Assembly: GCA_002686365.1 (NCBI GenBank)
Contig: NZBZ01000018.1
Span: 32,286 to 96,285, forward strand
Source of the DNA: a bacterium
Lineage (GTDB): Bacteria; Patescibacteriota; Minisyncoccia; UBA6257; GWB1-50-10
Length of the DNA stretch: 64,000 nucleotides
Reading direction: 5' to 3'
A model generated the notes under the pieces. The model did not search any database and was not told the origin of the DNA. It saw nothing but the letters and a program-made list of their open reading frames with translations. A program made the position numbers and the translations under genes. This document shows positions 24,404 through 46,480 of this stretch, in pieces; within the stretch, counting starts at the first letter, position 1; the number at the start of each line of letters is the position of its first letter.

Positions 24404-25378
24404 TTACTTAATAAGCCCCTTAAACTCCTCTACCATTGGAACCTGTTCTGGTTCAAGTCCATAGAAATCTGCTGTGTAATATGCAGCCCAATCTGCAAGA
24501 ATAAGAGAAGAAAAAATCTTTTCAAATTCTGTCTCTCCCTCTAGCGCCACTTCTTTTACTGGAAGCTTTCTGTCTTTGTAGAGTTCCTTCAGCACCTTCA
24601 TCCTTTTTTGTGTGCCATCTTGATCACTTGCGTCTTTTAAAAATATGAAAGAGAAATTTTTTGACAGCTCTTTTGTTGGGCTCTGAACATCAAATCCTGT
24701 CATCTCATTATGATTTAATTCCGGCAGGATATTGCAGAATGCAGGAACTTTTCCTGTCTCATTAAACTTAATCTTCCAGTTATATGCTATTGGTCCGTTT
24801 CTGGTTCCAGAGTAAATTACTGGCACCTTTCCTTTTAACTCTTTTGCAAGATCGTGCCCTTTCTGCTCTAGGGCTCCGGGATCCAGTGTTTCTGTAAGCT
24901 CTTTTATTTCCTCAAGCGTGTCCTCTTCTCCTATAAGCTTTAAAAGCCCTTTGAAGCTTAGTCCGAGAGCAGAGCGTGGCTGGATACCAGTATTCGGCAT
25001 CTTAATATATGGAGTCTCTGTTTTTTTCGCGAGTTTGATAAGCTCTCCTCCGGTTGAAATTACTGCTATTTGCAGATTTTTTTCTTTTGCCTTTTCAAAC
25101 GCATCAACTGTTTCTTCTGTATTTCCTGAGTATGAGCTTACGATAATTAAACGATTTTCCAAATCCTCTAAAGAAAGAGGAGGGAGTCCATAATCTTTGT
25201 GAATTATGAGATCAAGATATGGATTCCAGACTTTTAAGAGGTCTGCCGCAAGATGAGACCCGCCCATGCCGATTACTACGAACTTTCCTTTTGATTCAAG
25301 GTTGTCTTTGTTTTCTATCTTTGGCTCATAGGAAAACTGTTTTGGAAAGTTCTCTATGGCAGTTTTCATCCCTCCCAT
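24404..25378 (-). CDS. Bifunctional phosphoglucose/phosphomannose isomerase (SIS-domain, archaeal-type PGI/PMI)
   Basis: N-terminal SIS domain with GMGGSHLAADLL; ~320 aa in length. Confidence 0.65.
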   Translation of the reverse strand: MGGMKTAIENFPKQFSYEPKIENKDNLESKGKFVVIGMGGSHLAADLLKVWNPYLDLIIHKDYGLPPLSLEDLENRLIIVSSYSGNTEETVDAFEKAKEKNLQIAVISTGGELIKLAKKTETPYIKMPNTGIQPRSALGLSFKGLLKLIGEEDTLEEIKELTETLDPGALEQKGHDLAKELKGKVPVIYSGTRNGPIAYNWKIKFNETGKVPAFCNILPELNHNEMTGFDVQSPTKELSKNFSFIFLKDASDQDGTQKRMKVLKELYKDRKLPVKEVALEGETEFEKIFSSLILADWAAYYTADFYGLEPEQVPMVEEFKGLIK

Positions 25379-25477
25379 AACTTTAATATTGTATATTAGA
25401 TTTTTTCGACTTATACATCTTTTTTAAATATTTGCCCTGTTCTTTACGCATAACCCTTAGTTATGTGAGGGATTCAT
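25368..25477. repeat. TIR element copy E (left arm catccctcCcataac, conserved core ttttcgacttatacat, right arm gttatgtgagggattcat), ending at the PGI/PMI start
   Basis: Alignment with copies A-D. Confidence 0.6.
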
Positions 25478-25484
25478 GCTCATA

Positions 25485-26195
25485 TTATTTCACTAGCTTA
25501 TCTATTAGCTTTAATGCCTCATCAGCACTATTGACCAGATGATAAAGCTTCATATCCTCTTTATCTATTGCCTTATTCTTTTTGTATACGGTTTCTTCAA
25601 TGAAGTCCAGTAAGGGTGTCCAGTATTCTTTGCCAACAAGAATTATTGGAATGGATTTTATTTTATCTGTTTGTACAAGTGTTGTTATCTCAAAAAACTC
25701 ATCAAGCGTTCCAAGCCCTCCGGGAAAGAAGATATAGACTTCAGATGCAAACGCGAGCATTACTTTACGCGTAAAAAAGTAGTGAAATGCCTCACCGTCT
25801 TTTACATACTTGTTTCTTCTCTGCTCCTGCGGAAGCTGAATGTTTAATCCTACAGACGCCCCCTTTGCCTCATATGCCCCCTTATTTGCTGCCTCCATTA
25901 TTCCCGGTCCCCCTCCGGTAATAATCGCAAAATCCTTTTTTGCCAGTTTATATGCCAGTTTTGTTGCCTCCCTATACATTTCCTGCTTGATTCCGCACCT
26001 GGATGTTCCGAAGAAGGTTGCTGCCATTTCATATCTCTGAAGAATCTCAAATCCTTTCACAAACTCGCTTAATACCTTGAAAATTCTCCAAGATTCATCT
26101 TCCTGCAGATGAGAGCTTAAGACGTTTTGTATTCGCTTTGGAACTGCCCAGTCTTTCTTATGAAGCGCCTCGTGCTGTTTTTGTTTCTTTTTCAT
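25485..26195 (-). CDS. LOG family protein (cytokinin riboside 5'-monophosphate phosphoribohydrolase-like)
   Basis: The GGGPGIMEA and PGGLGTLDE motifs are present. Confidence 0.8.
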   Translation of the reverse strand: MKKKQKQHEALHKKDWAVPKRIQNVLSSHLQEDESWRIFKVLSEFVKGFEILQRYEMAATFFGTSRCGIKQEMYREATKLAYKLAKKDFAIITGGGPGIMEAANKGAYEAKGASVGLNIQLPQEQRRNKYVKDGEAFHYFFTRKVMLAFASEVYIFFPGGLGTLDEFFEITTLVQTDKIKSIPIILVGKEYWTPLLDFIEETVYKKNKAIDKEDMKLYHLVNSADEALKLIDKLVK

Positions 26196-26297
26196 CCCTC
26201 ACATAAAACACACTTTGAGATATTCATGTGTGCTATTTTTATGTTTTCGACTGTAAACATACTTTGTTTTCTCCCGCACGTTATGTGAGGGATTCAT
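26193..26297. repeat. TIR element copy A (catccctcacataa ... gttatgtgagggattcat) filling the junction between genes 26281..26601 and 25485..26195
   Basis: See the finding on the TIR element family. Confidence 0.65.
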
Positions 26298-26601
26298 ACT
26301 TTTTATTATACAGGATTTTGTGTTTCGACATTTTTTTCAAGTGCTCTTCTAATTTCTTTGGATCAGAGCTTACAAAGAAAACTTCCTGAACACCTTGTGA
26401 ATGGGCAATACACTTTAGACCGCTTTTTGTGCAGTACTGTATACGAATTGCAAATGGACTTCCCTTTCTTTTAGGCTTTATGCGGCCGGGATTTATAGCA
26501 TCTATCTCAGGCCACAGCTCTATCTTTTGTAGAAAACTTTCAAGACCTGCTATAAGTCCGTGTTGAAGTTTAATTTTGGATCTCTTCCTGTGGCGCATCA
26601 T
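26281..26601 (-). CDS. Hypothetical basic protein; its last codons (YESLT*) are supplied by TIR element copy A
   Basis: ORF only. Confidence 0.3.
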   Translation of the reverse strand: MMRHRKRSKIKLQHGLIAGLESFLQKIELWPEIDAINPGRIKPKRKGSPFAIRIQYCTKSGLKCIAHSQGVQEVFFVSSDPKKLEEHLKKMSKHKILYNKKYESLT

Positions 26602-27811
26602 TTTTTAAAGCTTCCCATGTATATGTGTTACTTGGGTCCCAAAGCAAGTAGCCGGCATAGTCATCCCCCATTGCGTCTTTGGTTGCTCTAATCTGGTCAC
26701 GTACCATCTCTTCAGTGTATGGAACTTCAAGGTCAAAGTCCTGCAGCCATGGGCGTATTGCAGATCTTGCCTGTGTTGTTGTTGACATTGCTTTGAGCCG
26801 TCTTTTTGCATGCTCCATAGAGTAATGAACTACCTCGTACGGATGCTCTGCAGAATTTTCAAATCCGAGGAAGGACTTTACATAGTGGGATGGGTAGATC
26901 ATGGGCGCAACTGCATCAAAGTACTCATAAGCATCTTCTATGACCTGCCCTATTCCCATGTCATTTCCATAGGTTACTGTTGTCTGTCCGAATATATCCG
27001 CGGAGATTTTTGTTCCTGCAAGCTCCTGCCTTATATATTCAAAAAAGTTTTTGATTGCTGTTTCTCTACGCGTGTTCTCATCCCATGAGAAAAAGTATGT
27101 GTTTTCTATTCCCGCGTCTGATGGAAAGCGGATGTAATCAAAGTTTATCTCATCAAAGCCGCGGCTTGCAGCGTCTTTTGCAATGTTTGCAGTGTACTCC
27201 CACGCCTCGCGCGATGCAGGATCTATCCAGCCAACGTCATGATTGTCCAGCCAGAGTGTTTCTACAGAGATTGGAGTAGATGAGCTTATTTTCGTAATGT
27301 CATGGATAGCAAGGTCTGGCCGGGCCGTAGAAAGCACTGGGTCCTGAAATACTGTCATGCGGGCAATAACATAAATTCCCGCATCATGAAGTTTTTTTAT
27401 CACACCGTTTACATCTTTAATTCTGTTCTCCTGCGCATTGTACTTTTTCAGCTCTGGAATATCTGTTTCATATGAGAGAACTCCTGTGAAATCTTTAATA
27501 TCCATAATTACTGCGTTTATTTCTGAATCTTGGGCAAGTCGGATAACATTGCTGATTGTTCCTGAATTTGCCGCTGACCATGCAGTAAGATAGATTCCAT
27601 TTATAACTTTTGGAGGATTTGGAAGGGGTTTCTGGGCTGGAGTTTCTTTTCTTATAATTGGAGCAAGTATTTTTTCTACAAGAGTTGCTTTTTCTTCCTG
27701 TTCGGAATCTTCTATCTCTACATCAAAACTGTTTCCAACTAAAAATCCAAATCCAAATGGAATTGCTATAATAACGATAATTATGAGCGCTGGGTAGATT
27801 ATTTTCCTCAT
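26570..27811 (-). CDS. Secreted GHL10/DUF4015-like putative glycoside-hydrolase TIM-barrel protein (YngK-like)
   Basis: N-terminal TM/signal segment plus GIYLTAWSA..INAVIMDIKD..IYVIARMTVFQD..WLDNHDVGWIDP, which is typical of GH-like family 10. Confidence 0.45.
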   Translation of the reverse strand: MRKIIYPALIIIVIIAIPFGFGFLVGNSFDVEIEDSEQEEKATLVEKILAPIIRKETPAQKPLPNPPKVINGIYLTAWSAANSGTISNVIRLAQDSEINAVIMDIKDFTGVLSYETDIPELKKYNAQENRIKDVNGVIKKLHDAGIYVIARMTVFQDPVLSTARPDLAIHDITKISSSTPISVETLWLDNHDVGWIDPASREAWEYTANIAKDAASRGFDEINFDYIRFPSDAGIENTYFFSWDENTRRETAIKNFFEYIRQELAGTKISADIFGQTTVTYGNDMGIGQVIEDAYEYFDAVAPMIYPSHYVKSFLGFENSAEHPYEVVHYSMEHAKRRLKAMSTTTQARSAIRPWLQDFDLEVPYTEEMVRDQIRATKDAMGDDYAGYLLWDPSNTYTWEALKNDAPQEEIQN

Positions 27812-27917
27812 CCCTCACATAACACGCACTTCAAGGCACCTTTTCGTGTGCGTGCTATTTTAATGCTTTCGACTGTATACATAATATTTCTCTTTACGTG
27901 TTATGTGAGGGACTCAT
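27809..27917. repeat. TIR element copy B
   Basis: catccctcacataac...ctttcgactgtatacat...gttatgtgagggactcat; flanked by ATGA on the minus strand, giving the stop of the DHFR-like gene and the start of the GH-like gene. Confidence 0.65.
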
Positions 27918-28420
27918 TTTTTCTTGTAATGGAGCAGAATTGAGCCCTGTTTATTTAATTTCTTTGTGCTTACTAGCGTAAATTTCTTATCGTGTTTTTC
28001 ACTAAATAGGCCTATCCCCTGTCCGAATACAATAGGTTCTATTGTAAGATAGAGTTCATCAAATAGTCCATTCTTGAGGCAGAAGCTGTATGTCTCTGCT
28101 CCTCCCAAGATATTTATGCGCTTGTATCTAAGGTCTTTAATCAGCTTTTTTAAGTCTAGATTCTTGGGATTGCAATAGAGGAGGTTCTTTACTTTTTTTA
28201 CTGTTCTTGTTTTGCGCGTGAAAACTATGCAGTTTCGTTTTGAAAGATATGTTCGTGCTGTTTTGTAGGTATTGTTGCCTACTATTATCGCATCTCCCTT
28301 TTCAAGTTCTTTTCGGAAAAATATCTTGTCCTCTTTGCTTGTCCAATCTGTGAAGTGTCGAGAGTTTTTAGCAATCTTGCCGTCTAATGTTATTGCAGCA
28401 AGAGCTATATACTTTGTCAT
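27914..28420 (-). CDS. Dihydrofolate reductase family protein
   Basis: ~168 aa; LAAITLDGKIA...IVGNNTY...ILGGAETY matches the DHFR/RibD-C fold pattern. Confidence 0.5.
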   Translation of the reverse strand: MTKYIALAAITLDGKIAKNSRHFTDWTSKEDKIFFRKELEKGDAIIVGNNTYKTARTYLSKRNCIVFTRKTRTVKKVKNLLYCNPKNLDLKKLIKDLRYKRINILGGAETYSFCLKNGLFDELYLTIEPIVFGQGIGLFSEKHDKKFTLVSTKKLNKQGSILLHYKKK

Positions 28421-28986
28421 TCTTCAAGAAGTTTTTTTAGTTTTTCGTTTTCTTTTAAGATTGCCACCTCCTCAATGCACCATTCAGAGTATCTTTCTGG
28501 ATGCTCTTCTGTTTCTTTTACAAACTCCTCCCATGGCACCCATCTTACTGCCTCAACTTCCTTTGGGTTTAGATTTGGGTCCTTATCTGTTTTTCCAATA
28601 AGAATGGGACAGATTTCATTTTCCATTACTCCATCCCTTGTGAACTTGTATCTATATAGAGAGGCCTCTTCTATGTGCTCTACGTGAAGTCCTAATTCAT
28701 CTTTTAGGCGTCGTTTTACTGCATCTGCATTTGATTCATTAAGCGCTGGATGGCCGCATAAAGAATTAGACCACACAAGAGGCCATGTTTTCTTCTCGTG
28801 ACTTCTCTGCTGCAAAAGAAGGTCTTTGCCCTTAAAAATAAAGGCAGAAAAGCCGCGATGCAAAGGAGTCTCTTTAGTATGCACCTCAGACTTTGGCATT
28901 GTTCCGAGGACATTATTATCTTGGTCTACAAGGACCACATGTTCAGTCATGAGTGTTAGTGTATCTAAATATGTATAGTTCTGCAA
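28417..28986 (-). CDS. idi: Isopentenyl-diphosphate delta-isomerase type 1 (Nudix)
   Basis: WSNSLCGHP (the IDI-1 WTNTCCSHP-like motif) and a Nudix box RRLKDELG are present. Confidence 0.65.
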   Translation of the reverse strand: MQNYTYLDTLTLMTEHVVLVDQDNNVLGTMPKSEVHTKETPLHRGFSAFIFKGKDLLLQQRSHEKKTWPLVWSNSLCGHPALNESNADAVKRRLKDELGLHVEHIEEASLYRYKFTRDGVMENEICPILIGKTDKDPNLNPKEVEAVRWVPWEEFVKETEEHPERYSEWCIEEVAILKENEKLKKLLEE

Positions 28987-29007
28987 TTTTCTAAGGCAGT
29001 CTTTTTT

Positions 29008-29880
29008 TTATTCAAGATGACTTAAAGGGCAGATTTCTTGGAACATTCCATCTTCAAGTGTGTAGTAAGTAGTTGTAACTGGAGAAGGTAATTCTTCTGG
29101 AATATATGGGTTTGCAATAAGAAGATAGCTTTCTGGATAATGCTCTACTCCGTACTGTGAGCCCAGTCCATAAAAGACGATTTCTCCGCTTCTTACATCT
29201 ACAATTGCGTGAGACTGGCATCCTGCTCCACATCCCCATTCAGAAACTGCGTAATATCCTGCAAAATTTACTCCCTCTTTTGTCCCCTCTATAATTTTTG
29301 TCTGGAAAACAAGCGCGTCTTCATTGGATGAAAAGTCTACCTCGCTTATTTGACCAGTGTAGACCTCATCTGCAGGCATGCCTTCAAATGTAAAACCTTT
29401 GCAGTCTATTTCTGACATTGGCAGAGCTGCTGCTCCCATCATCTCTGGCATGGCTGATTCTCTCCCTCCTCCGCCTATTCCAAGAATCTGCTTTGGAGCT
29501 TCTGCAGGTACTGCCTTTGGAGCTGAATCGCCAAAAGAGAATGATTCTACTGTGATATCATCTTCAAGGGAGACAATTTTATTGAGGAGCTCCTCATCAC
29601 TTTTTGGCTTTTCTATCCTTGTCTGATAATACACAACTCCTGCAACTACAATAAACGCAAATACTGCACCTCCTACTCCAAGGGCGAATCTGTTTATTGA
29701 TGTGAGGATTCCCAATGGACGATCTTCTTTCATCACTCTTTGTGCCTTCATCTGTCCGGCCTTTTCTTCAAGAAGATTTCTTAATTCATTCTTAAAGTTT
29801 TCGTCACACTGAACTTCTGGACGGACCCGACGCAAATCACGAATCATCTCTTTTTCTATTTTTCCTTTGTCTTCCCTCAT
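29008..29880 (-). CDS. Putative anti-sigma factor (single TM, extracytoplasmic domain)
   Basis: It lies immediately downstream of and overlapping the ECF sigma gene. A short cytoplasmic N-terminus is followed by one TM segment and a periplasmic domain. Confidence 0.45.
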   Translation of the reverse strand: MREDKGKIEKEMIRDLRRVRPEVQCDENFKNELRNLLEEKAGQMKAQRVMKEDRPLGILTSINRFALGVGGAVFAFIVVAGVVYYQTRIEKPKSDEELLNKIVSLEDDITVESFSFGDSAPKAVPAEAPKQILGIGGGGRESAMPEMMGAAALPMSEIDCKGFTFEGMPADEVYTGQISEVDFSSNEDALVFQTKIIEGTKEGVNFAGYYAVSEWGCGAGCQSHAIVDVRSGEIVFYGLGSQYGVEHYPESYLLIANPYIPEELPSPVTTTYYTLEDGMFQEICPLSHLE

Positions 29881-30395
29881 ATTTCTTTTCTTAACTTATT
29901 TATAACTCTTGAAAACATAACCTTACATGCTCCCTCACTCTTTCCTGTAATGTCTGCGATTTCTTTATATGACAACTCATCCCATACTCGCATAAGGACT
30001 ACATCTCTCTGATCTTTTGGAAGCTTTTTTAAATATTTCTGCGCCTTCCCTATATCCTCCTTCAGATCAAGACCCTCCTCTACCTTATCGCTCTCTCCTA
30101 TCTCCCACACTTCTTCAATATCTACTGTTTCTTTAGATACTCTCCAGTGGTCAAATAGAGTGTTGCGCGCAATGCGGTATATCCATGCAGAAAATGTTCC
30201 CTTGCCTTCCTCAAATGTCCCTATCTTCTCAAGGGCCTTGATAAATGTCTTGCTTGTAATATCTTCTGCAGTCTCCTTGTGGAATGTACGATAGTAGAGG
30301 AAGTTGTAGATTTTCTGGAAGTACTCCTCGTAGAGCACGCTAAAGTGCTCTAGTTCACCCTTCTGACATTTTTCAATTGCATCATGCTCATCCAT
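29877..30395 (-). CDS. RNA polymerase ECF-type sigma factor (sigma-70 regions 2 and 4)
   Basis: Region 2 (FSAWIYRIARNTLFDHWR) and a region-4 HTH (LSYKEIADITGKSEGACKV) are present. Confidence 0.85.
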   Translation of the reverse strand: MDEHDAIEKCQKGELEHFSVLYEEYFQKIYNFLYYRTFHKETAEDITSKTFIKALEKIGTFEEGKGTFSAWIYRIARNTLFDHWRVSKETVDIEEVWEIGESDKVEEGLDLKEDIGKAQKYLKKLPKDQRDVVLMRVWDELSYKEIADITGKSEGACKVMFSRVINKLRKEI

Positions 30396-30607
30396 GTGCT
30401 CTTCATTCTACACTCCCATTCTCCCAAGACCAAATTTTCTGCGCCAGGAGGGAGAGCACAAGAGGCGAGCAAAACTTGTGCTCATATATCCTCTGGCAAT
30501 CGAGCTTTAAGAGGATTAATCTCAAAGCTTCATATATATCTACGATTGAAGAGAATTGTTGTAACTATAAAAAATAGCCCCATGATAGAGGCTTATTTTT
30601 ATTCCCT

Positions 30608-31825
30608 TTATTCGTACAATCTTAGGAGTTCGTTGTACTTGTCAATACGTTCTCTGTATGGAGCTCCGATTTTTACGCCATCTGCTGAAGATGCGCGCGC
30701 AAGCTGAATGATAAACACACCCTCTGTCTCCCCTGCTCTGTGAGATATAACGAATTTTAAGTTATTGTTTTTTGCAGCCTGAATTGCCTCACAGGTTTCT
30801 GTAACTGTGCCAATCTGATTTGGTTTTATAATAACGCCTGTAATGAGCTTTTCTTTCGCAGCTCTTTCAATGGTTTCCGGATCAGTGGTTGTAATGTCGT
30901 CTCCAATAATGAGCAAATCTTCACACTCTGCCTGTAGCTCCCTGAATCCATCCTCGTCTTTTTCTCCAAATGGGTCTTCTATTGAATACAAAAGGCCTGT
31001 TTCGTCTTTGTAGGTCTTATAAATCTCCTGCAGCTCCTTTCTCTCAAGCTTTTTGCCTTTTAGTGTGTACTCCTTCCCTTTTTGGAAGTGATTTGCCGCA
31101 GCATCAAGACCAATCTTGAATTCGCGCTCCAGCTTCTCTGATTTTATGAGCTTTGTAAGGATTTGAATTGGTTTAAAATTATCTCTGAAATTTTCGTCAA
31201 TTCCTCCCTCGTCTCCGATTGGAATCGTATGTAGCCTATGGCTTTTTTCAATTTGTAAGTGGAGCTTTCTGTAAAGTGTAATAAGTTTTTTTATTGTATC
31301 TCTTATTGACTTCCCAGACTCTGCAACTACAAGGTATTCCTGAATATCAAGATTGTTTTTCGCGTGTGCTCCTCCCTCAATAAAATTCGCGAATATTGCC
31401 GGCTGCTTTCTGGTATTCGTGCCATTTGTGCCTGATTCGTGCGATTTGCGAGCTCCAAAAAACTCTTTCTGAATTACTTCCCACGGTTCTTTTTCTCCTG
31501 CAAGAAGCTTGGTAAATGCGACAGAGAGCCCTAGCGCAACATTTCCGCCTATCTTTTCTTTTCTTCTTGTGTTGTCGAGCTCCTTTAATGCCTCATCAAA
31601 ACTTTTAATTGAGCTAAATGATTTTCCAATAAGCTTCTTCCTTGCCTTATCAATGGAGCTCTTTGCCCTTCCATAATCTACTGTTATAACCTCATTGCCT
31701 CCCCTGCTTCTGCCCGCAGGGATGCCAGCGCAAGCCCTTGCCTTGTCTCCTGCAACCTCAAACTCGAGCGTTATATCCGCCCTAGAGTCAAAAATCTCTC
31801 TTACTTGTATATCCCGTATTATCAT
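30608..31825 (-). CDS. eno: Enolase
   Basis: N-terminal IREIFDSRADITLE, then GAGLD..NHF and the SHRSGETED motif. Confidence 0.9.
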   Translation of the reverse strand: MIIRDIQVREIFDSRADITLEFEVAGDKARACAGIPAGRSRGGNEVITVDYGRAKSSIDKARKKLIGKSFSSIKSFDEALKELDNTRRKEKIGGNVALGLSVAFTKLLAGEKEPWEVIQKEFFGARKSHESGTNGTNTRKQPAIFANFIEGGAHAKNNLDIQEYLVVAESGKSIRDTIKKLITLYRKLHLQIEKSHRLHTIPIGDEGGIDENFRDNFKPIQILTKLIKSEKLEREFKIGLDAAANHFQKGKEYTLKGKKLERKELQEIYKTYKDETGLLYSIEDPFGEKDEDGFRELQAECEDLLIIGDDITTTDPETIERAAKEKLITGVIIKPNQIGTVTETCEAIQAAKNNNLKFVISHRAGETEGVFIIQLARASSADGVKIGAPYRERIDKYNELLRLYE

Positions 31826-31932
31826 CCCTCACATAACACGAACTCCAAGGCGTCTTTTTGTACGTGTATTACTTTAATGGTTTCGACTGCAAGCATGTGT
31901 TTTTTTTCCTGCACGTTATGTGAGGGAATCAT
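31823..31932. repeat. TIR element copy C
   Basis: catccctcacataac...tttcgactgcaagcat...gttatgtgagggaatcat; the ATGA at each end gives the stop of the 2-hydroxyacid dehydrogenase gene and the start of eno. Confidence 0.65.
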
Positions 31933-32927
31933 TCTTCCGGCACTACGTTTTCAGGCTTGCCCTTTATAAATCCTTTGATGTTTCCAATTGTAATGTCTAG
32001 AATCCTTTCATGCGCCTCTACGGAGTTGAATGCATCATGCGGAGTGATTAAGACATTATCCATGTGTATCAAAATGTGATCCTGAAGCATGGTTTCCGCG
32101 TCCTCCCCCTTTGCCGGCTTGTAATGCTTTTCTTTTAGCGCAACCTCTTCTTCGAGCACGTCGAGTCCTGCTCCTGCAATTTTCTTTTTCTTTAACGCCT
32201 CTACCAAAGCCTCAGTTTCTACAAGCCCGCCTCTGGCTGCATTTATTAGATATGCGGTGGGCTTCATGAGTTTTATGTTCTTTTTATTTATTAAGTGATT
32301 CGTATGTTTATTTAGCGGGCAGTGAAGTGTTACAAAGTCAGACTTTTTAAGAAGCGCCTCAAGCGATACATACTTATATCCCATCTTTTTTGCATATGCC
32401 GCATCTTTTACAACATCAAAGGCAATAATATTCATGTCGAATCCTCTTGCAATGCGAACTACCTCTTTTCCGATTCGTCCTGTTCCTACAACTCCGATAG
32501 TCTTTCCCTTAAGATCAATTCCTCGAAGTCCCATAAATTCAAATCTGCTTGTTTCTTTTAGCCTATCAATTCCCCAGTATATTTTTCTAGAAAGATTTAA
32601 AATCAGCCCGAATGTAAATTCTGCCACTGTATTGTCTCCATATCCCGGAACATAAGAAGCTGTAATCCCTCTTTTTTTGCACTCCTTAAGATCAATATGA
32701 TCAAAGCCAGTTGAGCGTGTCGTGACGAATTTCAGATTTGGCAGCTTATCAAGCATTGCCTTGTCCATTTTTGAATCCACAAATACAGAAATTACTTCTG
32801 CGTCTTTTGCATCTTTGGCGTTTTTTAGTGTAAGCGGACTCTTAACAAACTTCAGTTCATGAGAAGAGAAGTTCTTTTTTAAATGGGCTTCTTCCCAGCC
32901 CTCAAAGCTAAAGAATGAGATGTTCAT
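31929..32927 (-). CDS. D-isomer-specific 2-hydroxyacid dehydrogenase family (D-lactate/phosphoglycerate dehydrogenase-like)
   Basis: NAD-binding GVVGTGRIGKEV and the catalytic domain order are present. Confidence 0.8.
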   Translation of the reverse strand: MNISFFSFEGWEEAHLKKNFSSHELKFVKSPLTLKNAKDAKDAEVISVFVDSKMDKAMLDKLPNLKFVTTRSTGFDHIDLKECKKRGITASYVPGYGDNTVAEFTFGLILNLSRKIYWGIDRLKETSRFEFMGLRGIDLKGKTIGVVGTGRIGKEVVRIARGFDMNIIAFDVVKDAAYAKKMGYKYVSLEALLKKSDFVTLHCPLNKHTNHLINKKNIKLMKPTAYLINAARGGLVETEALVEALKKKKIAGAGLDVLEEEVALKEKHYKPAKGEDAETMLQDHILIHMDNVLITPHDAFNSVEAHERILDITIGNIKGFIKGKPENVVPEE

Positions 32928-38145: not shown

Positions 38146-38403
38146 CTATGCTGGATTTACTGGTTCTGCTGGCGCTTCTCCTCCTTTCTTTTCTCCGCCG
38201 CAGCAGTTCCTACTACATACGCCCTTGTGCGTTACAGCTTCAAAGACTGCTGCAAGACCAATTACGATGTAGATAATTCTGGAGATAATGTTGGCCTGCC
38301 CGCCAAATAATTCCCCAATGTCCCACCCAATAACTCCAATAAGCAGCAAGTTTATACCTCCAATAATGAGTAGGATAAACGTGACAATGTGTAATGCCTT
38401 CAT
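38146..38403 (-). CDS. DUF378 family small membrane protein
   Basis: MKALHIVTFILLIIGGINLLLIGV...ISRIIYIVIGLAAV matches the DUF378 pattern. Confidence 0.6.
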   Translation of the reverse strand: MKALHIVTFILLIIGGINLLLIGVIGWDIGELFGGQANIISRIIYIVIGLAAVFEAVTHKGVCSRNCCGGEKKGGEAPAEPVNPA

Positions 38404-38515
38404 GGGAACTTCACGAATATCGAATTGGGTACGAATATACGAATTCTTTATTCGTATAGTTCGTATATTAGATATTCGTGCTTGATTCGCATATTCGTGT
38501 ATTTTCGACCTTTCT
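38404..38515. promoter_or_regulatory. Second copy of the ACGAATAT/ATATTCGT motif-array upstream region (paralogous to 17103..17215)
   Basis: Near-identical alignment to the region upstream of the glutaredoxin-like gene. Confidence 0.5.
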
Positions 38516-40263: not shown

Positions 40264-40333
40264 TGCCTTTTTTCTTTTGCTATTCTAATATTCTTGAGAA
40301 TTTGAGAATAGCTGGGATTAGAATTTCTTTGCA

Positions 40334-40363
40334 ACAAAAAAGGAGCGCGTGGATGTGCGCCCC
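40334..40363 (-). terminator. Intrinsic terminator T1 (GGGGCGCACAUCCACGCGCUCC + U6 on minus) after paralog P1
   Basis: This is one of three near-identical copies at 40334, 40767 and 41108. Confidence 0.7.
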
Positions 40364-40402
40364 AATGGATTCGATGGTTGAAAAGGTGATGGTCGTCTGT
40401 AG

Positions 40403-40708: not shown

Positions 40709-40746
40709 CTATTTTATACCCCTATTTTGCGAAAAAACCAAGTTTC
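40709..40746 (-). promoter_or_regulatory. Conserved promoter (minus strand: TTGGTT-N17-TATAAAAT preceded by GGGG) for P1
   Basis: The same ~38-nt block occurs at 41920..41962 and a variant at 51010..51042. Confidence 0.5.
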
Positions 40747-40766
40747 TTTATTTTTAACTTTTTTCA

Positions 40767-40796
40767 ACAAAAAAGGGGCGCATGGATGTGCGCCCC
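40767..40796 (-). terminator. Intrinsic terminator T2 after paralog P2
   Basis: Near-identical to T1 and T3. Confidence 0.7.
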
Positions 40797-40820
40797 AATG
40801 GATTGACGAGTATCTGCTTC

Positions 40821-41050: not shown

Positions 41051-41107
41051 GACGTCTCCTGTCATCCTGTTGGAGGTCTCTGCTGACCTCGCTCTGTCTT
41101 ATATTAT

Positions 41108-41137
41108 ACAAAAAAGGAGCGCGTGGATGTGCGCCCC
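41108..41137 (-). terminator. Intrinsic terminator T3 after paralog P3
   Basis: Near-identical to T1 and T2. Confidence 0.7.
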
Positions 41138-41178
41138 AATGAATTTGACGATCAGGAAGGCTGCTGTCATCGAGGAGG

Positions 41179-41604: not shown

Positions 41605-41654
41605 GCGATCACCCCCTCTCTTCTCTTGTGGGCTTGAAGATTGAGACGGATCAC

Positions 41655-42743: not shown

Positions 42744-42805
42744 AATTTAGATGACAACTACAACGGATTATTGCCGCTTTAGTGTTATTTCTATTATTTC
42801 TGATC

Positions 42806-45379
42806 CTAGACGCAAAGCCCCCATCCGCAGGATGGGCATTTCAAACATCCTTCTGCTCTTACGAGCTTTGTACTGCATTTTGGACAGCTGGTAGGCGTTC
42901 CTCCATTTCCATTGCCGCCTCCTGAAGGCTTTATCTGGCCTTCTTCCGGCACACTCTCTTCTTTCTTTGCCGGAGTTGAAAGTACCTGATCCTTGATTGA
43001 TGAGTCACGAAATACAGTTACATCCTTACATCCAAGTTTGTATGCGAGAAGGTATGCTTTTTTCATATCCTCTACTGTTGCGTCTTTCGGGAAGTTAGTT
43101 GTTTTTGAAATTGATGAGTCTGTCCATTTTTGGAATATTCCAAGGGTCTCAATGTGGCTCTCTGGAGTGAGGTCGTACGCAACTCGGAAGACTTTCTTTA
43201 TGACTGACGGAAGGTATGGAATTTTTTGAAGGCTTCCTCTGTGCTCTGAAATATCCTTCATGAGCGCTTCGTCATAGACACCAAACTCTTTCATTGCTAT
43301 TTCAAACTCCTCATCAATGTAGTAGAAACTTCCTACCGCAACATTTTTCTCAAATACCAGACTGAATACCGGCTCGATGCCTGATGAGGTGCCGGCAATC
43401 ATGGAGATTGAACCGGTTGGCGCGATTACCGTGGTATATCCATTTCGTATTCCGTGCTTTTTCACCTCTCTTGAAATCTCCCTCCAATCAAAGTCCCATG
43501 ATTTTTTATCGTGGAATCCTGCGATTGGGAGCTTGCCCTCTGTGTAGAAACTCTTTCTATAATATGGGAGTGGGCCTCGTTTCTTTGCAAGCTCTATTGA
43601 TGCAACCTTTGACCAGTAGTTTACAAACTGCATCAGCTTTTCCATAAACTTCAGTCCCTCTTTTGAGTCGTACGGAATGCGAAGAGCAAAGAGTGTGTCT
43701 GCAACACCCATGACACCGAGCCCAATCTTTCTTGTTGCCCGCGTCATGTCTTCTATTTCTTTTAGCGGGAAGTTATTTACGTCAATTACATTGTCTAACA
43801 ACTCGCATCCTGTCATAACTGCCTCTTTCAATCCATCCCAGTCAAATTTTGTTGTCCTATCTCCATTTCTATATACAAATGCGTGAACATTCACGCTTCC
43901 TAAGTTGCATGACTCGTTTGGATAAAGAAGTACCTCGCCGCATGGATTTGTAGTTACAATCGGACCAAGGTGCTTTAAGAATGGATTGTACTCATTTACC
44001 TTGTCTGAAAAGATAATCCCCGGCTCTGCTGATTCCCATGCCTGATAGACAATTAAATCGAATAGGGTGCGGGCGCTTATATGACGCGCTACCTCTCCTG
44101 TTCTTGGATTTATCAAAGGATAGTCCTTGTCTTTTTCGTAATACTTCCAGAAGTCATCTGTGAGAAGTACTGATATATTGAAGTTTTTGAGAGCCTTATT
44201 CCCTCCCTTTGCCTTTACGAACTTCTCTATGTCCGGATGATTAGAGTTCAAAATCCCCATATTTGCTCCTCTCCTAATGCCGCCCTGCTTTATCACCTCT
44301 GTCATTCTGTCGAACATGCTCATAAAGGTAATCGGCCCTGAGGCAGTCCCTGAAGTGCTTTTCACCCTATCTCCTTCAGGGCGCAGGTTTGAGAAGTTAT
44401 ATCCAACTCCTCCTCCTGCCTTAAAGATGTAGGCAGCATTTGTTAACGTATTCATAATGCTCTCCATTGAGTCTTCAAGACCCAATACAAAGCAGGCGCT
44501 TCCCATCCCAAGAGATCTTCCAAAGTTAGCAATGGCAGGCGTGTTTGGCAGAAACTTCCTATCTTTCATTACGTTGAAAAAGGACTCTATTCCTTTTTCA
44601 TGTACTGGAGAAGTTTTTCTTGCCTGAAGCATTCTCAGCGTTCTGCTCCAGGAATATTTCATATTGCGATCGTTATTCAGACGATCGTACGCAAGCTTTA
44701 GTCCTTCGAGATGAAATTCATTTAATACATACTCTCCAATTTGTATTTTTCCAACATATGACTTTGGCTTGAACGGCTCTTCTTCAAATGGCTCCTTTTG
44801 TCTTCTCTTTTGAAAAAACTTTTGGTCGTATAAAAGTGTTGGAAGGTAGCTGTGGATTGCTACGCGAGTGAAAAGTTCTTTTGGAGTTTCGATTACTTTT
44901 CCATCTTCATTTTTATCGAGGTATCTGGACTTTAGGACTCGGAGAGAGTTTACATCAAATGCTTTATCAACTTCATCAATCGTATCCTTCTCCAGAATCT
45001 GCTTTTTTTCGTTTCTGAGCTCTGTGCGTACCTGACGATACATGATATAACAGCGAGCAAGACGTACTTCTCCTGCTTCTATTAAAACTTTTTCTACTAC
45101 ATCCTGTACACCCTCTACCGTGGGTATTCTTTTAGACGAATAAACCTTCTCAAGCTCTTTGGCTACCTTGTTTGCGTAAGAGTCAGCCTTCTTTTCGTCC
45201 TCCACCCCCAGACTTGCCATTGCTTTAAAGATTGCAGCGGCAACTTTTTCTTTATGGAATGGAACCACAGTGCCATCACGCTTTTTAATCTTCGTGATGG
45301 AGATATTTTTCTTTACTCTCTTTCGACTTTGCGTTCTCTTTCTCTTTTTTTGCGCCTGAGCTTTCCTTTTTTGTGCCAT
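42806..45379 (-). CDS. nrdJ: Adenosylcobalamin-dependent (class II) ribonucleotide reductase with K/R-rich N-terminal extension and ATP-cone
   Basis: Active-site NPCGE, a C-terminal zinc ribbon CPKCS..CLKCPSCGWGLC typical of NrdJ, and ~857 aa in length. Confidence 0.85.
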   Translation of the reverse strand: MAQKRKAQAQKKRKRTQSRKRVKKNISITKIKKRDGTVVPFHKEKVAAAIFKAMASLGVEDEKKADSYANKVAKELEKVYSSKRIPTVEGVQDVVEKVLIEAGEVRLARCYIMYRQVRTELRNEKKQILEKDTIDEVDKAFDVNSLRVLKSRYLDKNEDGKVIETPKELFTRVAIHSYLPTLLYDQKFFQKRRQKEPFEEEPFKPKSYVGKIQIGEYVLNEFHLEGLKLAYDRLNNDRNMKYSWSRTLRMLQARKTSPVHEKGIESFFNVMKDRKFLPNTPAIANFGRSLGMGSACFVLGLEDSMESIMNTLTNAAYIFKAGGGVGYNFSNLRPEGDRVKSTSGTASGPITFMSMFDRMTEVIKQGGIRRGANMGILNSNHPDIEKFVKAKGGNKALKNFNISVLLTDDFWKYYEKDKDYPLINPRTGEVARHISARTLFDLIVYQAWESAEPGIIFSDKVNEYNPFLKHLGPIVTTNPCGEVLLYPNESCNLGSVNVHAFVYRNGDRTTKFDWDGLKEAVMTGCELLDNVIDVNNFPLKEIEDMTRATRKIGLGVMGVADTLFALRIPYDSKEGLKFMEKLMQFVNYWSKVASIELAKKRGPLPYYRKSFYTEGKLPIAGFHDKKSWDFDWREISREVKKHGIRNGYTTVIAPTGSISMIAGTSSGIEPVFSLVFEKNVAVGSFYYIDEEFEIAMKEFGVYDEALMKDISEHRGSLQKIPYLPSVIKKVFRVAYDLTPESHIETLGIFQKWTDSSISKTTNFPKDATVEDMKKAYLLAYKLGCKDVTVFRDSSIKDQVLSTPAKKEESVPEEGQIKPSGGGNGNGGTPTSCPKCSTKLVRAEGCLKCPSCGWGLCV

Positions 45380-45392
45380 GCGAATGTATATT

Positions 45393-45971
45393 TTATTTAA
45401 ACGTATTCTTTTTGCGACTGGTTATAATTTCTTGAGGAACGGGTCGCGCGAATTTCATATAGACCCGCTTATACAATTTCTTTTCTACTATAGCATATAA
45501 TCCGAAGAAGCTTGCTGTGTATAACAGGTTGCCTGCCAAGGTGTTTCTGAAGAATGGAAGGGCCAAAGCATACGAACTCATGAGTCCTTCTATGGTTTTA
45601 GAATACCAAGGAGAAAATGCCCATACTGCTGCGTTTGTTGAGAGGAAAAAGATGACAGATCCTGCAAATGATGCTCCCACTATGCGTTCCCAAGAGGTAT
45701 TTCTTCGTATCCAGCGCCCCAAAAGGCCCATCACGAGGAAAGTTCCATATACTGCTATCATGACTCCCGGCTCGTAGAAGCCTAAGAAGAAATCTGTCAC
45801 TCCCATTACGATTAGAGGAATGATAAGGCTCCATTTATTTTTTCCATGCGCTCCTGCAAAAAGGGCAAGGGCTCCAATGGCTGCCATGTTTGGCGGGTGC
45901 GGCAGTAGGCGAAGTGCTGCGCCTATGCCTGCGTATAGCGCTAAAAATTTTGTTGTTTTGTGTATCTCCAT
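45393..45971 (-). CDS. 6-TM membrane protein, candidate ECF-type vitamin (cobalamin?) transporter S-component
   Basis: The size (~190 aa), the TM profile and the position between the DUF4430 gene and nrdJ suggest this; no diagnostic motif was found. Confidence 0.35.
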   Translation of the reverse strand: MEIHKTTKFLALYAGIGAALRLLPHPPNMAAIGALALFAGAHGKNKWSLIIPLIVMGVTDFFLGFYEPGVMIAVYGTFLVMGLLGRWIRRNTSWERIVGASFAGSVIFFLSTNAAVWAFSPWYSKTIEGLMSSYALALPFFRNTLAGNLLYTASFFGLYAIVEKKLYKRVYMKFARPVPQEIITSRKKNTFK

Positions 45972-46378
45972 ATTATCTCGTCCCCCTCTTGAGGAATATA
46001 TGAACTTGCGCCGACTTTTGCATACTCATCCCCTACCCAGTACTGCCAGTACGCGCCGTTATCTCCATTTTCTTTATCTCCAATTTTTGTGATAAGCTCT
46101 CCGAGCCCTGGGAAACTTTTGTATGACAATTGTACCTTATTTTCCTCTCCTAGTCTTTGCATAAGTTCGAAGAGAGATTCGTTTGGCTCTGACATAGGCG
46201 TAAACGATTCTACTTCTCCATCTTCGTAATCTATGACTAGACTTACCTCAACTGCCTCTTCTCTTAGCGCGGCTTCTTGTATAGTTGCTTCCTGATTTGG
46301 AGTCTCTAATGAGAGTCCTATTAGAAGTGTTGCTGCTAGTAAAACAATCAGTATTCCAAGATATGTGTTTCTTTTCAT
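45941..46378 (-). CDS. Secreted DUF4430 protein (transcobalamin/intrinsic-factor beta-domain-like)
   Basis: Signal peptide plus GAYWQYWVGDEY...GDEIIWRY, matching the DUF4430 pattern (W.Y.VNG....GD.I.W.Y). Confidence 0.55.
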   Translation of the reverse strand: MKRNTYLGILIVLLAATLLIGLSLETPNQEATIQEAALREEAVEVSLVIDYEDGEVESFTPMSEPNESLFELMQRLGEENKVQLSYKSFPGLGELITKIGDKENGDNGAYWQYWVGDEYAKVGASSYIPQEGDEIIWRYTKQQNF

Positions 46379-46480
46379 CCCTCACATAACGCACTCCAAG
46401 ATTTCTCTTGTGCGCGTATTATGTTTTCTGTCGACCTTAGGCATATTGTTTTTATTACATGGGTTATGTGAGGGATTCAT
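46376..46480. repeat. TIR element copy D
   Basis: catccctcacataac...ctgtcgacc...gttatgtgagggattcat, with ATGA at both ends. Confidence 0.65.

Follow-up and report, generated by a model that had tools for sequence, protein, structure and literature searches.

MIRUs (Supply et al. 1997, summarised in PMC12548453) are short, mobile-looking repeats at start codons inside operons. The stop of the small MIRU ORF overlaps the host start by 4 nt, its start often overlaps the upstream stop, and insertion has been proposed to barely disturb expression (PMC12548453). The family described here differs from them: its copies occur singly, are bounded by 13-bp terminal inverted repeats (TIRs) that pair into a long hairpin and are flanked by a 5-bp target duplication, its host is Patescibacteria-like, and it has a long form that encodes a nuclease; identity with MIRUs was rejected, as the copies are single, TIR-bounded and outside Mycobacterium. 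MIRUs themselves are 46-101-bp direct or tandem units without TIRs; they are not known outside mycobacteria, and no enzyme is known to be associated with them.

Bacterial MITEs (Correia/NEMIS, RUP, ERIC, MITEAba12 and others) are non-autonomous units of ~100 bp with TIRs and target duplications, present many times per genome, and are co-transcribed with their neighbours, giving mRNA hairpins and sometimes ORFs or in-frame fusions (PMC10969869). The present elements resemble them in being ~100 bp, TIR-bounded, multi-copy and associated with a target duplication. The MITEs described so far trace back to IS elements carrying DDE or HUH transposases, and their targets are mostly TA or AT-rich intergenic DNA, whereas the present elements occupy ATGAN at gene starts, have a built-in stop/relay-ORF/stop-start design and hold their ends in common with an element encoding only a GIY-YIG nuclease.

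In homing endonuclease genes (phage T4 seg, I-TevI), as in the long form, a GIY-YIG nuclease is the sole product and is wedged between host genes. Homing endonucleases, however, are proteins of ~220-250 aa that include DNA-binding domains; they enter the cognate allele through double-strand-break repair and are not known to have TIRs or a target duplication, whereas the long form encodes a bare 85-88-aa catalytic domain closest to UPF0213/Slx1; identity with a homing endonuclease gene was excluded by the many unrelated sites, the TIRs and the 5-bp repeats. Rickettsia palindromic elements, for which we know of no enzyme, are palindromic repeats lying in frame inside coding genes whose protein still works. 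One copy (L008) is comparable, but in-frame intragenic insertion is exceptional in this family, most copies of which lie at gene boundaries. REP elements with their RAYTs (REPtrons) offer a likeness in that short palindromes, far outnumbering the enzyme genes, are presumably spread by a small hairpin-recognising nuclease-type enzyme; RAYTs, though, are enzymes of the HUH Y1 type, and REPs are extragenic units of 20-40 nt with no known target duplication. No description of short start-codon copies sharing ends with GIY-YIG-only elements was found in the literature.

Insertions at start codons and ATGA overlaps

Five ~100-bp copies and one 26-bp mini-copy, bounded by 13-bp TIRs TCCCTCACATAAC/GTTATGTGAGGGA and all on the minus (gene) strand, were identified in the window (the whole 64,000-nucleotide stretch analysed, from an uncultured, probably Patescibacteria host), each where the preliminary description had placed it. 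Spans take in both direct repeats:

17228..17264, minus strand: mini-copy, two arms 2 nt apart (26 bp), ATGAA repeats
25365..25477, minus strand: copy c1, 102 bp between arm ends, ATGAA on both sides
26191..26297, minus strand: copy c2, 96 bp, ATGAA repeats, inserted on the LOG start codon
26305..26312, minus strand: TGTATAAT, read from sequence as an extended -10 box, 7 nt upstream of the c2 left ATG
27807..27917, minus strand: copy c3, 100 bp, ATGAG repeats, where the DHFR stop overlaps the start of DUF4015 (GH-like)
31821..31932, minus strand: copy c4, 101 bp, ATGAT repeats, where the 2-hydroxyacid dehydrogenase stop overlaps the start of enolase
46374..46480, minus strand: copy c5, 96 bp, ATGAA repeats, from the stop of an Ig-like-domain protein to the DUF4430 start

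A search of the window with the 13-mer arm at up to 1 mismatch returned 12 matches, exactly six inverted pairs, and no match had exactly 2; allowing up to 3 gave 31 matches against 13.8 expected, a number reached in 0 of 100 shuffles. Searching the window and a further ~17 kb of the scaffold with an nhmmer profile added no copy. Nine of the 12 window arms were perfect and three had one mismatch, giving an arm identity among copies of 153/156 (98%), with interiors only ~60-80% alike. Full short copies were 92-102 bp, and the six copies lay inside 30 kb. All were in sense orientation and a few nt from a gene boundary (12 nt or less in 6/6, against 8% of 613 ATGA sites). The core GTCGAAAACAT, described initially as conserved, was retained in c2-c4 and not in the other copies. 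This core also reads as an antisense ATG (MFST..), for which we offer no explanation.

ATGA flanked all six window copies on both sides, as first described. The direct repeats were ATGAA (four copies), ATGAG (one) and ATGAT (one), and because the fifth base matches too (A/A, G/G, T/T) the proposed 4-bp duplication was refined to 5 bp, ATGAN, which can also be read as 4 bp plus a terminal T..A pair. Element-free syntenic relatives (L016, L023, L027/28), anchored by a LOG protein 79-81% identical, had a single ATGA or ATG at the c1-c4 sites: an empty single ATGA at the 2-hydroxyacid dehydrogenase/enolase, DHFR/GH-like and LOG/PGI junctions, and a bare start codon before LOG. Because the relatives have plain ATGA overlaps or bare starts without the element, sequence comparison establishes the window copies as insertions with target duplication. 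The comparison for empty sites urged in the preliminary description thus returned a single ATGA at three junctions, and these, with the unrelated loci occupied elsewhere, support its reading of MITE-like insertion into ATGA stop/start sites.

The relatives bear equally on a reading as integron attC-like recombination sites between gene cassettes. attC sites are typically imperfect palindromes of 57-141 bp that separate co-directional genes, and the arm inner ends CATAAC..GTTATG resemble the RYYYAAC..GTTRRRY motif. The empty sites and the synteny of flanking housekeeping genes in element-free relatives nevertheless refute this reading; the target is duplicated by insertion, the AAC/GTT motifs lie at the inner, not the outer, arm ends and no integrase is nearby, so that attC criteria are not met and such an origin is scarcely conceivable.

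Copies had been expected on stop/start junctions throughout, with the upstream ATGA as the preceding stop and the downstream ATGA as the next start; two of the six lie near gene ends instead. The upstream part holds for c3, c4 and c5 and fails for c1, c2 and the mini-copy; the downstream part holds for c1-c4 by ortholog N-termini, is plausible for c5 and fails for the mini-copy, at whose right ATG no gene starts. Copy c1 lies 2 codons inside the ancestral PGI/PMI ORF (MSM followed by KTAIENF; L020 has MSMRSAIENF), its right ATG (25369) being the present PGI start. It is the most degenerate copy, with one arm mismatch and no relay ORF, and the LOG stop upstream falls 8 nt before the TGA of its left repeat. 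The last codons said to be supplied by the element were verified: the DUF2103 ORF upstream of c2 now terminates at the left-arm TAA (..YESLT), and the PD-(D/E)XK (Cas4-like) nuclease gene, entered by the mini-copy 2 codons before its original stop, now terminates as ..HESRT in the left arm. A box matching that upstream of c2 precedes the bare LOG ATG in element-free relatives, which suggests a leaderless-type promoter, its function being inferred; if so, the c2 transcript would start at the left repeat of the element.

Copies outside the window were collected with an exact-arm pattern, so their arm conservation across genomes is partly ascertainment. The family was present in several Patescibacteria-like MAGs at unrelated loci, including the ribosomal junctions L14/L24, S14/S8, L23/L2 and L16/L29, the polA/histidine kinase junction and sites before ftsH and PBP genes. 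MAG FK3.bin18 had at least 7 copies, and a 12-kb locus (L011) held two full copies and one mini-copy; L011a and L014 were ~94% identical at different loci, and a decayed older copy lay directly upstream of L011b. At pilin genes, the ..LCEG of the element joins in frame to FT(L/I)(I/V)E, recreating the prepilin G/F site, and L008 lengthens a prepilin leader by 32 residues, in frame. Identical 5-mers flanked 16 of 25 copies (including ATGAG, ATGAT, ATTTA and ATTGA); flanks of the other 9 were imperfect (among them L007, L030 and L036) or inverted (ATTCA..ATGAA, also written TTCAT..ATGAA, in L002, L003, L009a and L009b). The expectation that every copy sits on ATGA, met in the window, fails for the ATTTA and ATTGA copies elsewhere: ATGA is preferred, not obligatory, and in effect the element targets start codons or overlapping ATGA stop/start sites. 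MITE criteria were met as to TIRs, target-site duplication, empty sites and small multi-copy units without a mobility gene of their own.

Hairpins and relay reading frames

Across 25 copies, 98.4% of arm cells were paired, with compensatory changes in 3 of 13 arm pairs. The outer stem was 13-19 bp (dG -29 to -37 kcal/mol; z -2.9 to -6.7), and the loop ATG was unpaired. TGAA was changed to TTCA in the left repeat of four copies, whose stem is thereby 17 bp. Copies of the marine type had a second hairpin whose sequence differed from copy to copy. In c3, a second hairpin (~27823-27854) adjoins the right arm. Rfam at gathering thresholds gave only a SAM riboswitch in the window, elsewhere than the copies, and at E up to 5 gave no match within 25300-32000 on any of the four copies there.

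These structures could be those of a host-selected intercistronic regulatory module, a structured leader and uORF gating translation, with arms kept by host selection and transposon traits merely historical. The stem buries the AUG, the four TGAA to TTCA changes lengthen it, the second hairpin varies in sequence, the window arms are far better conserved than the interiors, and a displaced L011 copy lacks arms. Recognition by a transposase or nuclease would require arm conservation equally, however, and at these junctions close relatives have a plain ATGA overlap; no shared function links the genes served, near-identical copies occupy different loci, and the mini-copy, L006 and L010a lie where there is nothing to regulate. 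Such a module was judged improbable, and insertion of a mobile element remained the preferred reading.

Each arm closes two frames with stop codons. Among 18 full copies, 14 had an ORF that begins at the duplicated or an internal ATG and ends on, or 3 nt before, the regenerated start codon, the arrangement for translational coupling seen in MIRUs. Interior shuffles gave an expectation of 4.2/18 (14 reached in 0 of 2000 simulations), and the antisense strand had such ORFs in 5/18; the relay ORF was absent in c1, L003, L010a and L012. From the left ATG, the relay ORFs of c2 (26199-26297, MNPSHN..KVCFM) and c5 (46382-46480, MNPSHN..ILECVM) stop 3 nt before the LOG and DUF4430 ATGs, respectively. 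The internal ORF of c2 (26192-26260, MFTVENIKIAHMNISKCVLCEG) terminates in the ATGA overlap, and that of c3 (27808-27882, MYTVESIKIARTRKGALKCVLCEG) has a TGA overlapping the GH-like ATG. The 36-codon relay ORF of c4 (31822-31932), annotated as a gene by the ENA gene caller, runs from the left ATGA, where it overlaps the upstream stop, to the right ATGA, where it overlaps the enolase start, the exact double overlap of MIRUs. SD-like GAGGG/GGGAG motifs were 13-15 nt from the internal ATG, further than optimal.

Whether the elements are simply small protein-coding genes with functional peptides (..VLCEG, ..SRLxxELCEG) was weighed against these frames. Most copies have ORFs of 14-36 codons, one of them annotated as a gene, and in FK3-type ORFs indels are in frame and the SRL motif is spelled in synonymous codons, points that also speak for the relay ORF. 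The frame differs, however, among copies sharing nucleotides (c4, L011a, L011b), early stops interrupt c1, c3 (relay frame), L012 and L014, and the C-terminal residues are dictated by the inverted repeat and conserved at all codon positions, which leaves the peptide reading very unlikely.

Without transcript or ribosome data, we infer from the relay ORFs why insertion is tolerated. The left arm would stop upstream frames in two of three (TGA in the repeat, TAA in CATAAC), and the third (ATG AAT CCC TCA CAT AAC..) would open the relay ORF from the duplicated ATG, keeping the host's original initiation or coupling context; where an internal ATG is used, it may be a remnant of the nuclease start. 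Translation of either ORF would unwind the stem burying the downstream AUG. Because termination would occur at GUU AUG UGA GGG AUG, or at ..GGA UGA overlapping the regenerated AUG, we propose that ribosomes would start again on the host gene by termination-reinitiation, the mechanism suggested for MIRUs. The translation-uncoupling leader considered at the outset would fit the burial of the start codon by the hairpin, but the relay ORF should re-couple translation.

A long form encoding a GIY-YIG nuclease

Elements of ~280 bp shared the arms of the short copies and had as their only gene an 85-88-aa SLX1/UPF0213-type GIY-YIG nuclease. Intact ORFs of this length lay between the same or co-varied arms in L030, L032-35 and L036-37, with ATGAA flanks and an adjoining host ATG; in L010b a degenerate gene lay between the arms (PF01541, E 3e-8). 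PDB sequence matches were 1zg2 (E 1e-5) and Slx1. The nuclease model (pLDDT 89) matched best the folds of UPF0213 BH0048 (1zg2) and Slx1 (TM 0.65, rmsd 1.7 A) and less well the I-TevI catalytic domain; membership of the GIY-YIG domain (UPF0213/Slx1 branch) was met in sequence and fold.

As to the MITE criterion of a cognate autonomous element, the same-arm long forms (L030, L010b) and those with co-varied arms (L032, L036) encode this nuclease, an enzyme not recognised as a transposase. L030 comes from MAG clean1859, also home of short copy L002. Short copies of the marine type keep ATG-TAT..CAGTC..ATTAAA and ..GCCT(T)GA..GCGT-GTTATG, resembling the 5' and 3' ends of the nuclease ORF. Given the shared arms and a MAG with both a long form and a short copy, the short copies seem to be derived by deletion; we consider it likely that they are non-autonomous MITE-like relatives of a TIR-bounded GIY-YIG-only mobile element, probably through internal deletion. 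They are presumed to be mobilised through the shared ends by a nuclease that a full-length copy at another genomic site would encode, since these ends could form a hairpin or cruciform of the kind that SLX1-type nucleases cut. Mobilisation is inferred only from arm co-occurrence and co-variation, and enzyme activity and site-specific cleavage are likewise inferences. We know of no GIY-YIG nuclease that performs strand transfer or integrates DNA, so the origin of the 5-bp duplication is not explained by nuclease-driven mobilisation.

A rival reading is that the short copies are ordinary MITEs of a conventional (e.g. DDE) IS whose transposase lies elsewhere, the GIY-YIG genes being passengers or secondary homing-endonuclease invaders. 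Besides the lack of known integration by GIY-YIG enzymes, it is favoured by three points: DDE transposition is marked by TIRs with a 4-5-bp target duplication, no cognate full-length, nuclease-bearing copy was found in the ~82 kb of scaffold read, and FK3-type interiors had no clear similarity to the nuclease gene. Against this, four diverged nuclease ORFs (54-72% identity) each had correspondingly diverged arms with compensatory changes, and each ORF began 0-11 nt from the left arm and stopped inside or against the right; no transposase domain was found in any locus table or Pfam scan, and 280 bp leaves no space for another gene. A conventional IS was considered unlikely.

More tentatively, and short of even odds in our estimate, the ~280-bp long form may be an unrecognised class of prokaryotic transposable element, whose sole enzyme, a bare 85-88-aa SLX1/UPF0213-type GIY-YIG structure-specific nuclease, would work on the hairpin or cruciform made by the element's inverted repeats, with start-codon targeting, self-expression via the duplicated host ATG and return of ribosomes to the host gene. 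Expression would proceed from the duplicated ATG with the host SD or upstream coupling, through the open frame in the left repeat (MNPSHN-MHYVY..), and the ribosome would be handed back through the stop/start overlap in the right repeat. A protein search gave 2915 representatives at E up to 0.001; among the best 150 of 2915 were 114 small proteins, of which 25 have a C-terminal G (11 of them ..AG) and 5 an N-terminal MNPAP/MNPV, the residues expected from ends ATGAATCCCGC..GCGGGATGA. These termini suggest that the start-codon design may be widespread with other repeat sequences.

Implications for compact genomes

For annotation, the element is a warning: relay ORFs and MNPSHN-extended nucleases are taken for genes by gene callers, which also place the starts or stops of neighbouring genes inside the arms. 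The element is a natural portable 'bicistronic coupler' with a defined hairpin and a candidate translation-insulating part. It connects a concrete selfish life-style with the tiny stand-alone GIY-YIG (UPF0213/YhbQ/Slx1-like) proteins, which are numerous and still poorly understood; on confirmation, this nuclease family would join the short list of enzymes of TIR/target-duplication-type transposition. For the host, the element represents a way for mobile DNA to persist where operons are tightly packed and the genome is very small: insertion falls on a start codon, the start is duplicated, the upstream frame is stopped and ribosomes are passed downstream. Through this start duplication and ribosome handover, essential loci such as ribosomal-protein operons, polA, ftsH and glycolysis genes appear to tolerate insertions.

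Copies in the window and their gene setting

The five ~100-bp copies (c1–c5) and the 26-bp mini-copy were confirmed at all six places, where they share the minus-strand layout ATGAN-T-CCCTCACATAAC-(2 or 72–78 nt)-GTTATGTGAGGG-ATGAN. When the window was searched with the 13-mer of the terminal inverted repeats (arms) at ≤1 mismatch, 12 matches were returned, which make up exactly six inverted pairs; none had exactly 2 mismatches, and at ≤3 mismatches 31 matches were obtained vs 13.8 expected, a count reached by no shuffle. Neither a profile search of the window nor inspection of ~17 kb more of the scaffold gave further copies. Across the window copies 153/156 arm positions are identical, and the interiors are only ~60–80% alike. 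The preliminary description had proposed a 4-bp target duplication. The repeat is indeed found on both sides, but it is 5 bp long, with the fifth base identical on the two sides in 6/6 copies (A/A in four, G/G in c3, T/T in c4); a 4-bp duplication would describe it equally well if the inverted repeat is taken to end in a T..A pair. An IS200/IS605-type insertion with a pseudo-repeat was set aside because of this co-variation of the repeat on the two sides.

The window belongs to a 105-kb TARA Oceans scaffold, and its closest named homologues and one syntenic MAG are assigned to 'Patescibacteria group bacterium'. The DNA was judged bacterial because a SAM-I riboswitch precedes metK:

23917–24027, minus strand, SAM-I riboswitch (65.7 bits, E 5e-13), immediately before the S-adenosylmethionine synthetase gene (22748–23800)

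At gathering thresholds Rfam gave no other hit in the window, and no family was placed on the copies, whether the whole window was scanned at these thresholds or 25300–32000 at permissive E-values. All six copies run the same way as the flanking genes:

c1, between LOG and PGI
c2, between DUF2103 and LOG
c3, between DHFR and DUF4015
c4, between 2-hydroxyacid dehydrogenase and enolase
c5, between an Ig-like-domain protein gene and DUF4430
mini-copy, at the end of a PD-(D/E)XK nuclease gene

The left ATGA had been thought to provide the stop codon of the upstream gene, which holds for c3, c4 and c5 but not for the others: the gene upstream of c2, and likewise that upstream of the mini-copy, extends to a TAA within the left arm, and in c1 the LOG stop lies 8 nt before the left TGA. 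No gene begins at the right ATG of the mini-copy, to which a start had been assigned. The position of c1 is two codons within the ancestral PGI frame, and the reconstructed PGI start, ATGAGC|ATGAAAACT, reads MSMKTAIENF vs MSMRSAIENF in another contig (L020). In 6/6 copies a gene boundary is no more than 12 nt away, compared with just 8% of the window's 613 ATGA sites; this bias in position and sense orientation reflects strong selection or targeting. Four ATGA overlaps in the window are left unoccupied.

The small element-borne reading frame of c4, which ends at the start of the next gene (relay ORF), is publicly annotated as a 36-aa gene at 9894–10004 of contig L001 (window 31822–31932), and ORF listings put starts and stops of neighbours inside arms (PGI start at 25378; DUF2103 and PD-(D/E)XK stops). 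This gene call and the arm-internal starts and stops are annotation artefacts caused by the element.

Two other repeats were seen in the window:

17102–17196 and 38407–38501, 95-nt repeat, copies 91% identical, rich in CGAATAT/ATATTCG half-sites
40328–40371, 40761–40804 and 41102–41145, 44-nt unit, on the minus strand GGGGCGCACATCCACGCGCTCC then TTTTTTGT

The 95-nt repeat, which has the appearance of a shared operator or promoter, lies upstream of a glutaredoxin-like gene (16863–17099) in one case and of a DUF378 gene (38146–38403) in the other. The 44-nt unit has the shape of an intrinsic terminator, and its spacing suggests a position after every one of three small genes in tandem, which are unconfirmed. 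A TATAAT-like box was also seen 6–8 nt (in one case up to 13) before many starts (8330, 15454, 19016, 35380, 55791, 26297) that have no Shine-Dalgarno motif; relatives have conserved the one in front of LOG. Because such boxes adjoin starts without a Shine-Dalgarno motif, the sequence suggests that leaderless mRNAs may be common in the window organism.

Element-free sites in relatives and copies in other genomes

That the copies are MITE-like insertions and not ancient leaders was borne out by relatives, which were syntenic contigs reached by a search with the LOG protein. At the sites examined in L016 (LOG 79% identical; gene order PPDK-2Hacid_dh-enolase-NUDIX-DUF4015-LOG-PGI), L023 and L027/28 (LOG 81% identical), arms were absent and the site was empty.

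Sites of window copies in syntenic relatives
c4 site (2-hydroxyacid dehydrogenase / enolase), L016: GAAGTATGAAAATAG, plain 4-nt ATGA overlap
c1 site (LOG / PGI), L016: GAAACAATGAAAGAAG, plain 4-nt ATGA overlap
c3 site (DHFR / DUF4015), L023: CGAAAATGAAAAAAAAGG, plain 4-nt ATGA overlap
c2 site (before LOG), L027/28, L016 and L023: TGTATAAT box, 6–7 nt, then the bare LOG ATG

No host base was lost, since ortholog N-termini match the window proteins from the right-hand ATG onward. An integron attC site was ruled out by these empty sites and the synteny in relatives; a translational bypass (hop) element was set aside because the flanking ORFs are separate genes in relatives, and a tRNA or riboswitch-type leader because the genes served are unrelated. 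Contig L029 (80%) has, ahead of LOG, a relative of the element that has diverged (right arm reading ..GGGTGAGGG), which shows that the family extends beyond copies with the exact arms.

The exact-arm pattern was found in four MAGs of a genome collection (clean1859, FK3.bin18 with 6 copies across 5 contigs, WY2.bin82 and a Candidatus Sungiibacteriota genome) and, by metagenome scan, in four TARA contigs; a further candidate from that scan, L013, was rejected as an unrelated CCCTCACAT tandem repeat. Viral contigs contained neither these short copies nor the ~280-bp long form with the same arms. Copies elsewhere also lie between or within co-directional genes.

Locations of copies in other contigs
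L009: at L14|L24 and S14|S8
L002: at L23|L2
L015: at L16|L29
L010b: at polA|histidine kinase
L007: before ftsH
L012: before a PBP gene
L014: before a methyltransferase gene

ATGA, said to flank every copy, does so in 6/6 window copies, but elsewhere ATTTA/ATTTA (L008) and ATTGA/ATTGA (L010a) occur. The copies of L005 and L008 and one L011 mini-copy lie within type IV pilin-like genes, at precisely the prepilin G|FT(L/I)(I/V)E site. In L008 the reading frame runs on through the entire element (..VSGF-IPHITQ..LCEG-FTLIE); in L005 the upstream part terminates and an element-borne ORF (MRRYINIKTIITESSRLQGLCEG) is joined to FTIVE. Both have the N-terminal methylation motif directly after ..LCEG. 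The mini-copy at the G|FT site of the L011 pilin-like gene (982–1038) is compound: its left arm occurs twice in tandem, each time following TAGGGGCTTG, and its right arm once; as in L005, C..G replaces T..A as the terminal pair.

Evidence of mobility came from L011a and L014, which are ~94% identical at different loci, and evidence of decay from a copy with eroded arms immediately upstream of L011b. Copies L002, L003 and L009a/b have an inverted flank (left TTCAT, right ATGAA), so that the left repeat is now the complement of the right and the stem is lengthened to 17 bp; the left repeat seems free to change where no stop codon is needed.

The long form and its GIY-YIG gene

The only gene of the long form encodes a small GIY-YIG nuclease. 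The L010b copy (239 bp, between the polA stop and the histidine-kinase start, ATGAAT on both sides) has as its interior a frameshifted gene of this kind (PF01541, E 3e-8), which starts directly after the left arm (CATAAC ATG CAT TAC GTC.., read as MHYVNILQS in the frame of the left ATGAAT) and has its end, ..SLMHVM*, at the right-arm ATG TGA. A search with this gene returned four proteins, and intact elements were found on their contigs.

Intact long forms
L030, MAG clean1859 (which also holds short copy L002): left ATTTAT-CCCTCACATAAC; ATG..88 codons..CAT GTT ATG TGA; right GGG-ATGAAACTG
L032–35, groundwater: left ATGAAT-CCCACACATAAC; 85-codon ORF; right TTATGTGTGGG-ATGAAAGC, before an NTP-transferase gene
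L036–37, two ENA metagenome assemblies: left CCCACACATAAT; 85-codon ORF; right ATTATGTGTGGG

In L030 a 549-aa host gene begins at the right-end ATG, and the host Shine-Dalgarno AAGGAGG is now upstream of the left end. Arm differences are compensatory, with 3/13 pairs changed on both sides, as matched by only 1/500 shuffles. The best PDB matches by sequence were 1zg2 (E 1e-5) and Slx1, which were also the best folds for the structural model (pLDDT 89; TM 0.65, rmsd 1.7 Å), and the GIY-YIG domains of I-TevI and UvrC matched the model more weakly. By sequence and predicted structure, the putative nuclease thus resembles UPF0213 protein BH0048 and Slx1.

Short-copy interiors are of two kinds, marine type and FK3-type (after FK3.bin18). 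Marine-type copies keep ATG-TAT..CAGTC..ATTAAA, and ..GCCT(T)GA..GCGT beside the right arm. Because these stretches are similar to the opening and closing codons of the nuclease ORFs, they suggest that marine-type copies arose by internal deletion, with the internal ATG as the old nuclease start. No such similarity was seen in FK3-type interiors.

A HMMER scan with one of these small GIY-YIG proteins (P0121) gave 2915 representatives at E ≤0.001, mostly ~85–100 aa. Among the 114 small proteins in the best 150 of the 2915, a C-terminal G is present in 25 (..AG in 11) and an N-terminal MNPAP or MNPV in five. Such termini are the expected coding of ends ATGAATCCCGC..GCGGGATGA, a lead that rests on proteins only, without DNA evidence; when viral contigs were scanned for this hypothetical variant, only chance matches in GC-rich phages were obtained. 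Many of the small GIY-YIG proteins P0125–P0273 have ..AG or ..EG at the C-terminus or MNPAP at the N-terminus, as would be expected of further inverted-repeat variants (TCCCGC../..GCGGGA) placed in the same way on ATGA junctions. On the same TARA scaffold, ~2.9 kb past the high end of the window (L025, 4688–4960, minus strand), lies a small GIY-YIG gene of a second kind (40% identity to P0121) that adjoins a tRNA-Lys(UUU) gene with a duplicated tRNA 5′ half upstream and has no CCCTCACATAAC arms; it looks like a different GIY-YIG mobile element targeting tRNA genes.

Four of five MITE criteria are met (terminal inverted repeats, target duplication, empty sites, small multi-copy size); for the fifth, a cognate element with a recognised transposase, the long form encodes a GIY-YIG nuclease instead. 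The window feature is accordingly filed as a MITE with MIRU-like coupling. A new class of nuclease-driven transposon is kept as a reading, in which GIY-YIG integration with a 5-bp repeat is unexplained. Literature searches turned up MIRU alone as a published analogue; it is functionally closest, being described as a mobile repeat that inserts at start codons with its ORF coupled to the host gene at −4 spacing. When papers were searched literally for the arm, only unrelated primers came up, and no description was found of the arm sequence, of MITEs in Patescibacteria or of GIY-YIG elements bounded by terminal inverted repeats, an absence that is not proof.

Relay ORF and hairpin

The left end, ATGAATCCCTCACATAAC, has stops in two frames (TGA of the repeat; TAA of CATAAC), and the third is open and reads MNPSHN. 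The right end, GTTATGTGAGGGATGA, also has stops in two frames, one (ATG TGA) 3 nt before the host ATG and the other (GGA TGA) overlapping it. In c2, c4, c5, the mini-copy, L006, L011a, L014 and L015 the whole element is open from the duplicated left ATG; the relay ORF of c4, called by the ENA gene caller, begins in the upstream ATGA and finishes in the downstream one. Where the left-ATG frame is closed (c3, L011b, L002, L004, L007, L009a/b), an ORF from an internal ATG uses the same stops. Such an ORF is present in 14/18 full-length copies vs 4.2 expected with shuffled interiors (14 reached in 0/2000 simulations) and in only 5/18 on the antisense strand; the copies are related, and the test is not fully independent. 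Read antisense, the conserved GTCGAAAACAT gives ATG TTT TCG AC.

RNA folding predicted for every copy an outer stem of 13–19 bp (ΔG −29 to −37 kcal/mol, z −2.9 to −6.7). This stem takes in the A and U of the downstream AUG, whereas the internal ATG falls in a loop that is open and A-rich. Marine-type copies have an extra hairpin stacked on the right arm, which differs in sequence per copy (z down to −4.9), and FK3-type loops are unstructured. RNAalifold on a MAFFT alignment recovered the outer stem only; the second hairpin is seen copy by copy. An intrinsic terminator was set aside, as there is no U-run.

In the proposed mechanism, a ribosome would open up the stem as it translates the relay ORF, and would then terminate and re-initiate at the overlapping or adjacent AUG. 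The proposal builds on behaviour that is established for ATGA overlaps (PMC6728339), and the same coupling argument has been put forward for MIRUs (PMC12548453). In FK3-type copies, length differences inside the ORF are multiples of three, the spacer before the ORF has a 1-nt indel, and the SRL motif is encoded by AGT CGC TTA, AGT CGT CTA or TCT CGG CTT; the in-frame indels and codon variation are signs of constraint on coding. Marine-type copies with the same nucleotides do not keep the same frame, which counts against a conserved peptide. It is translation up to the right arm, and not the identity of the peptide, that appears to matter.
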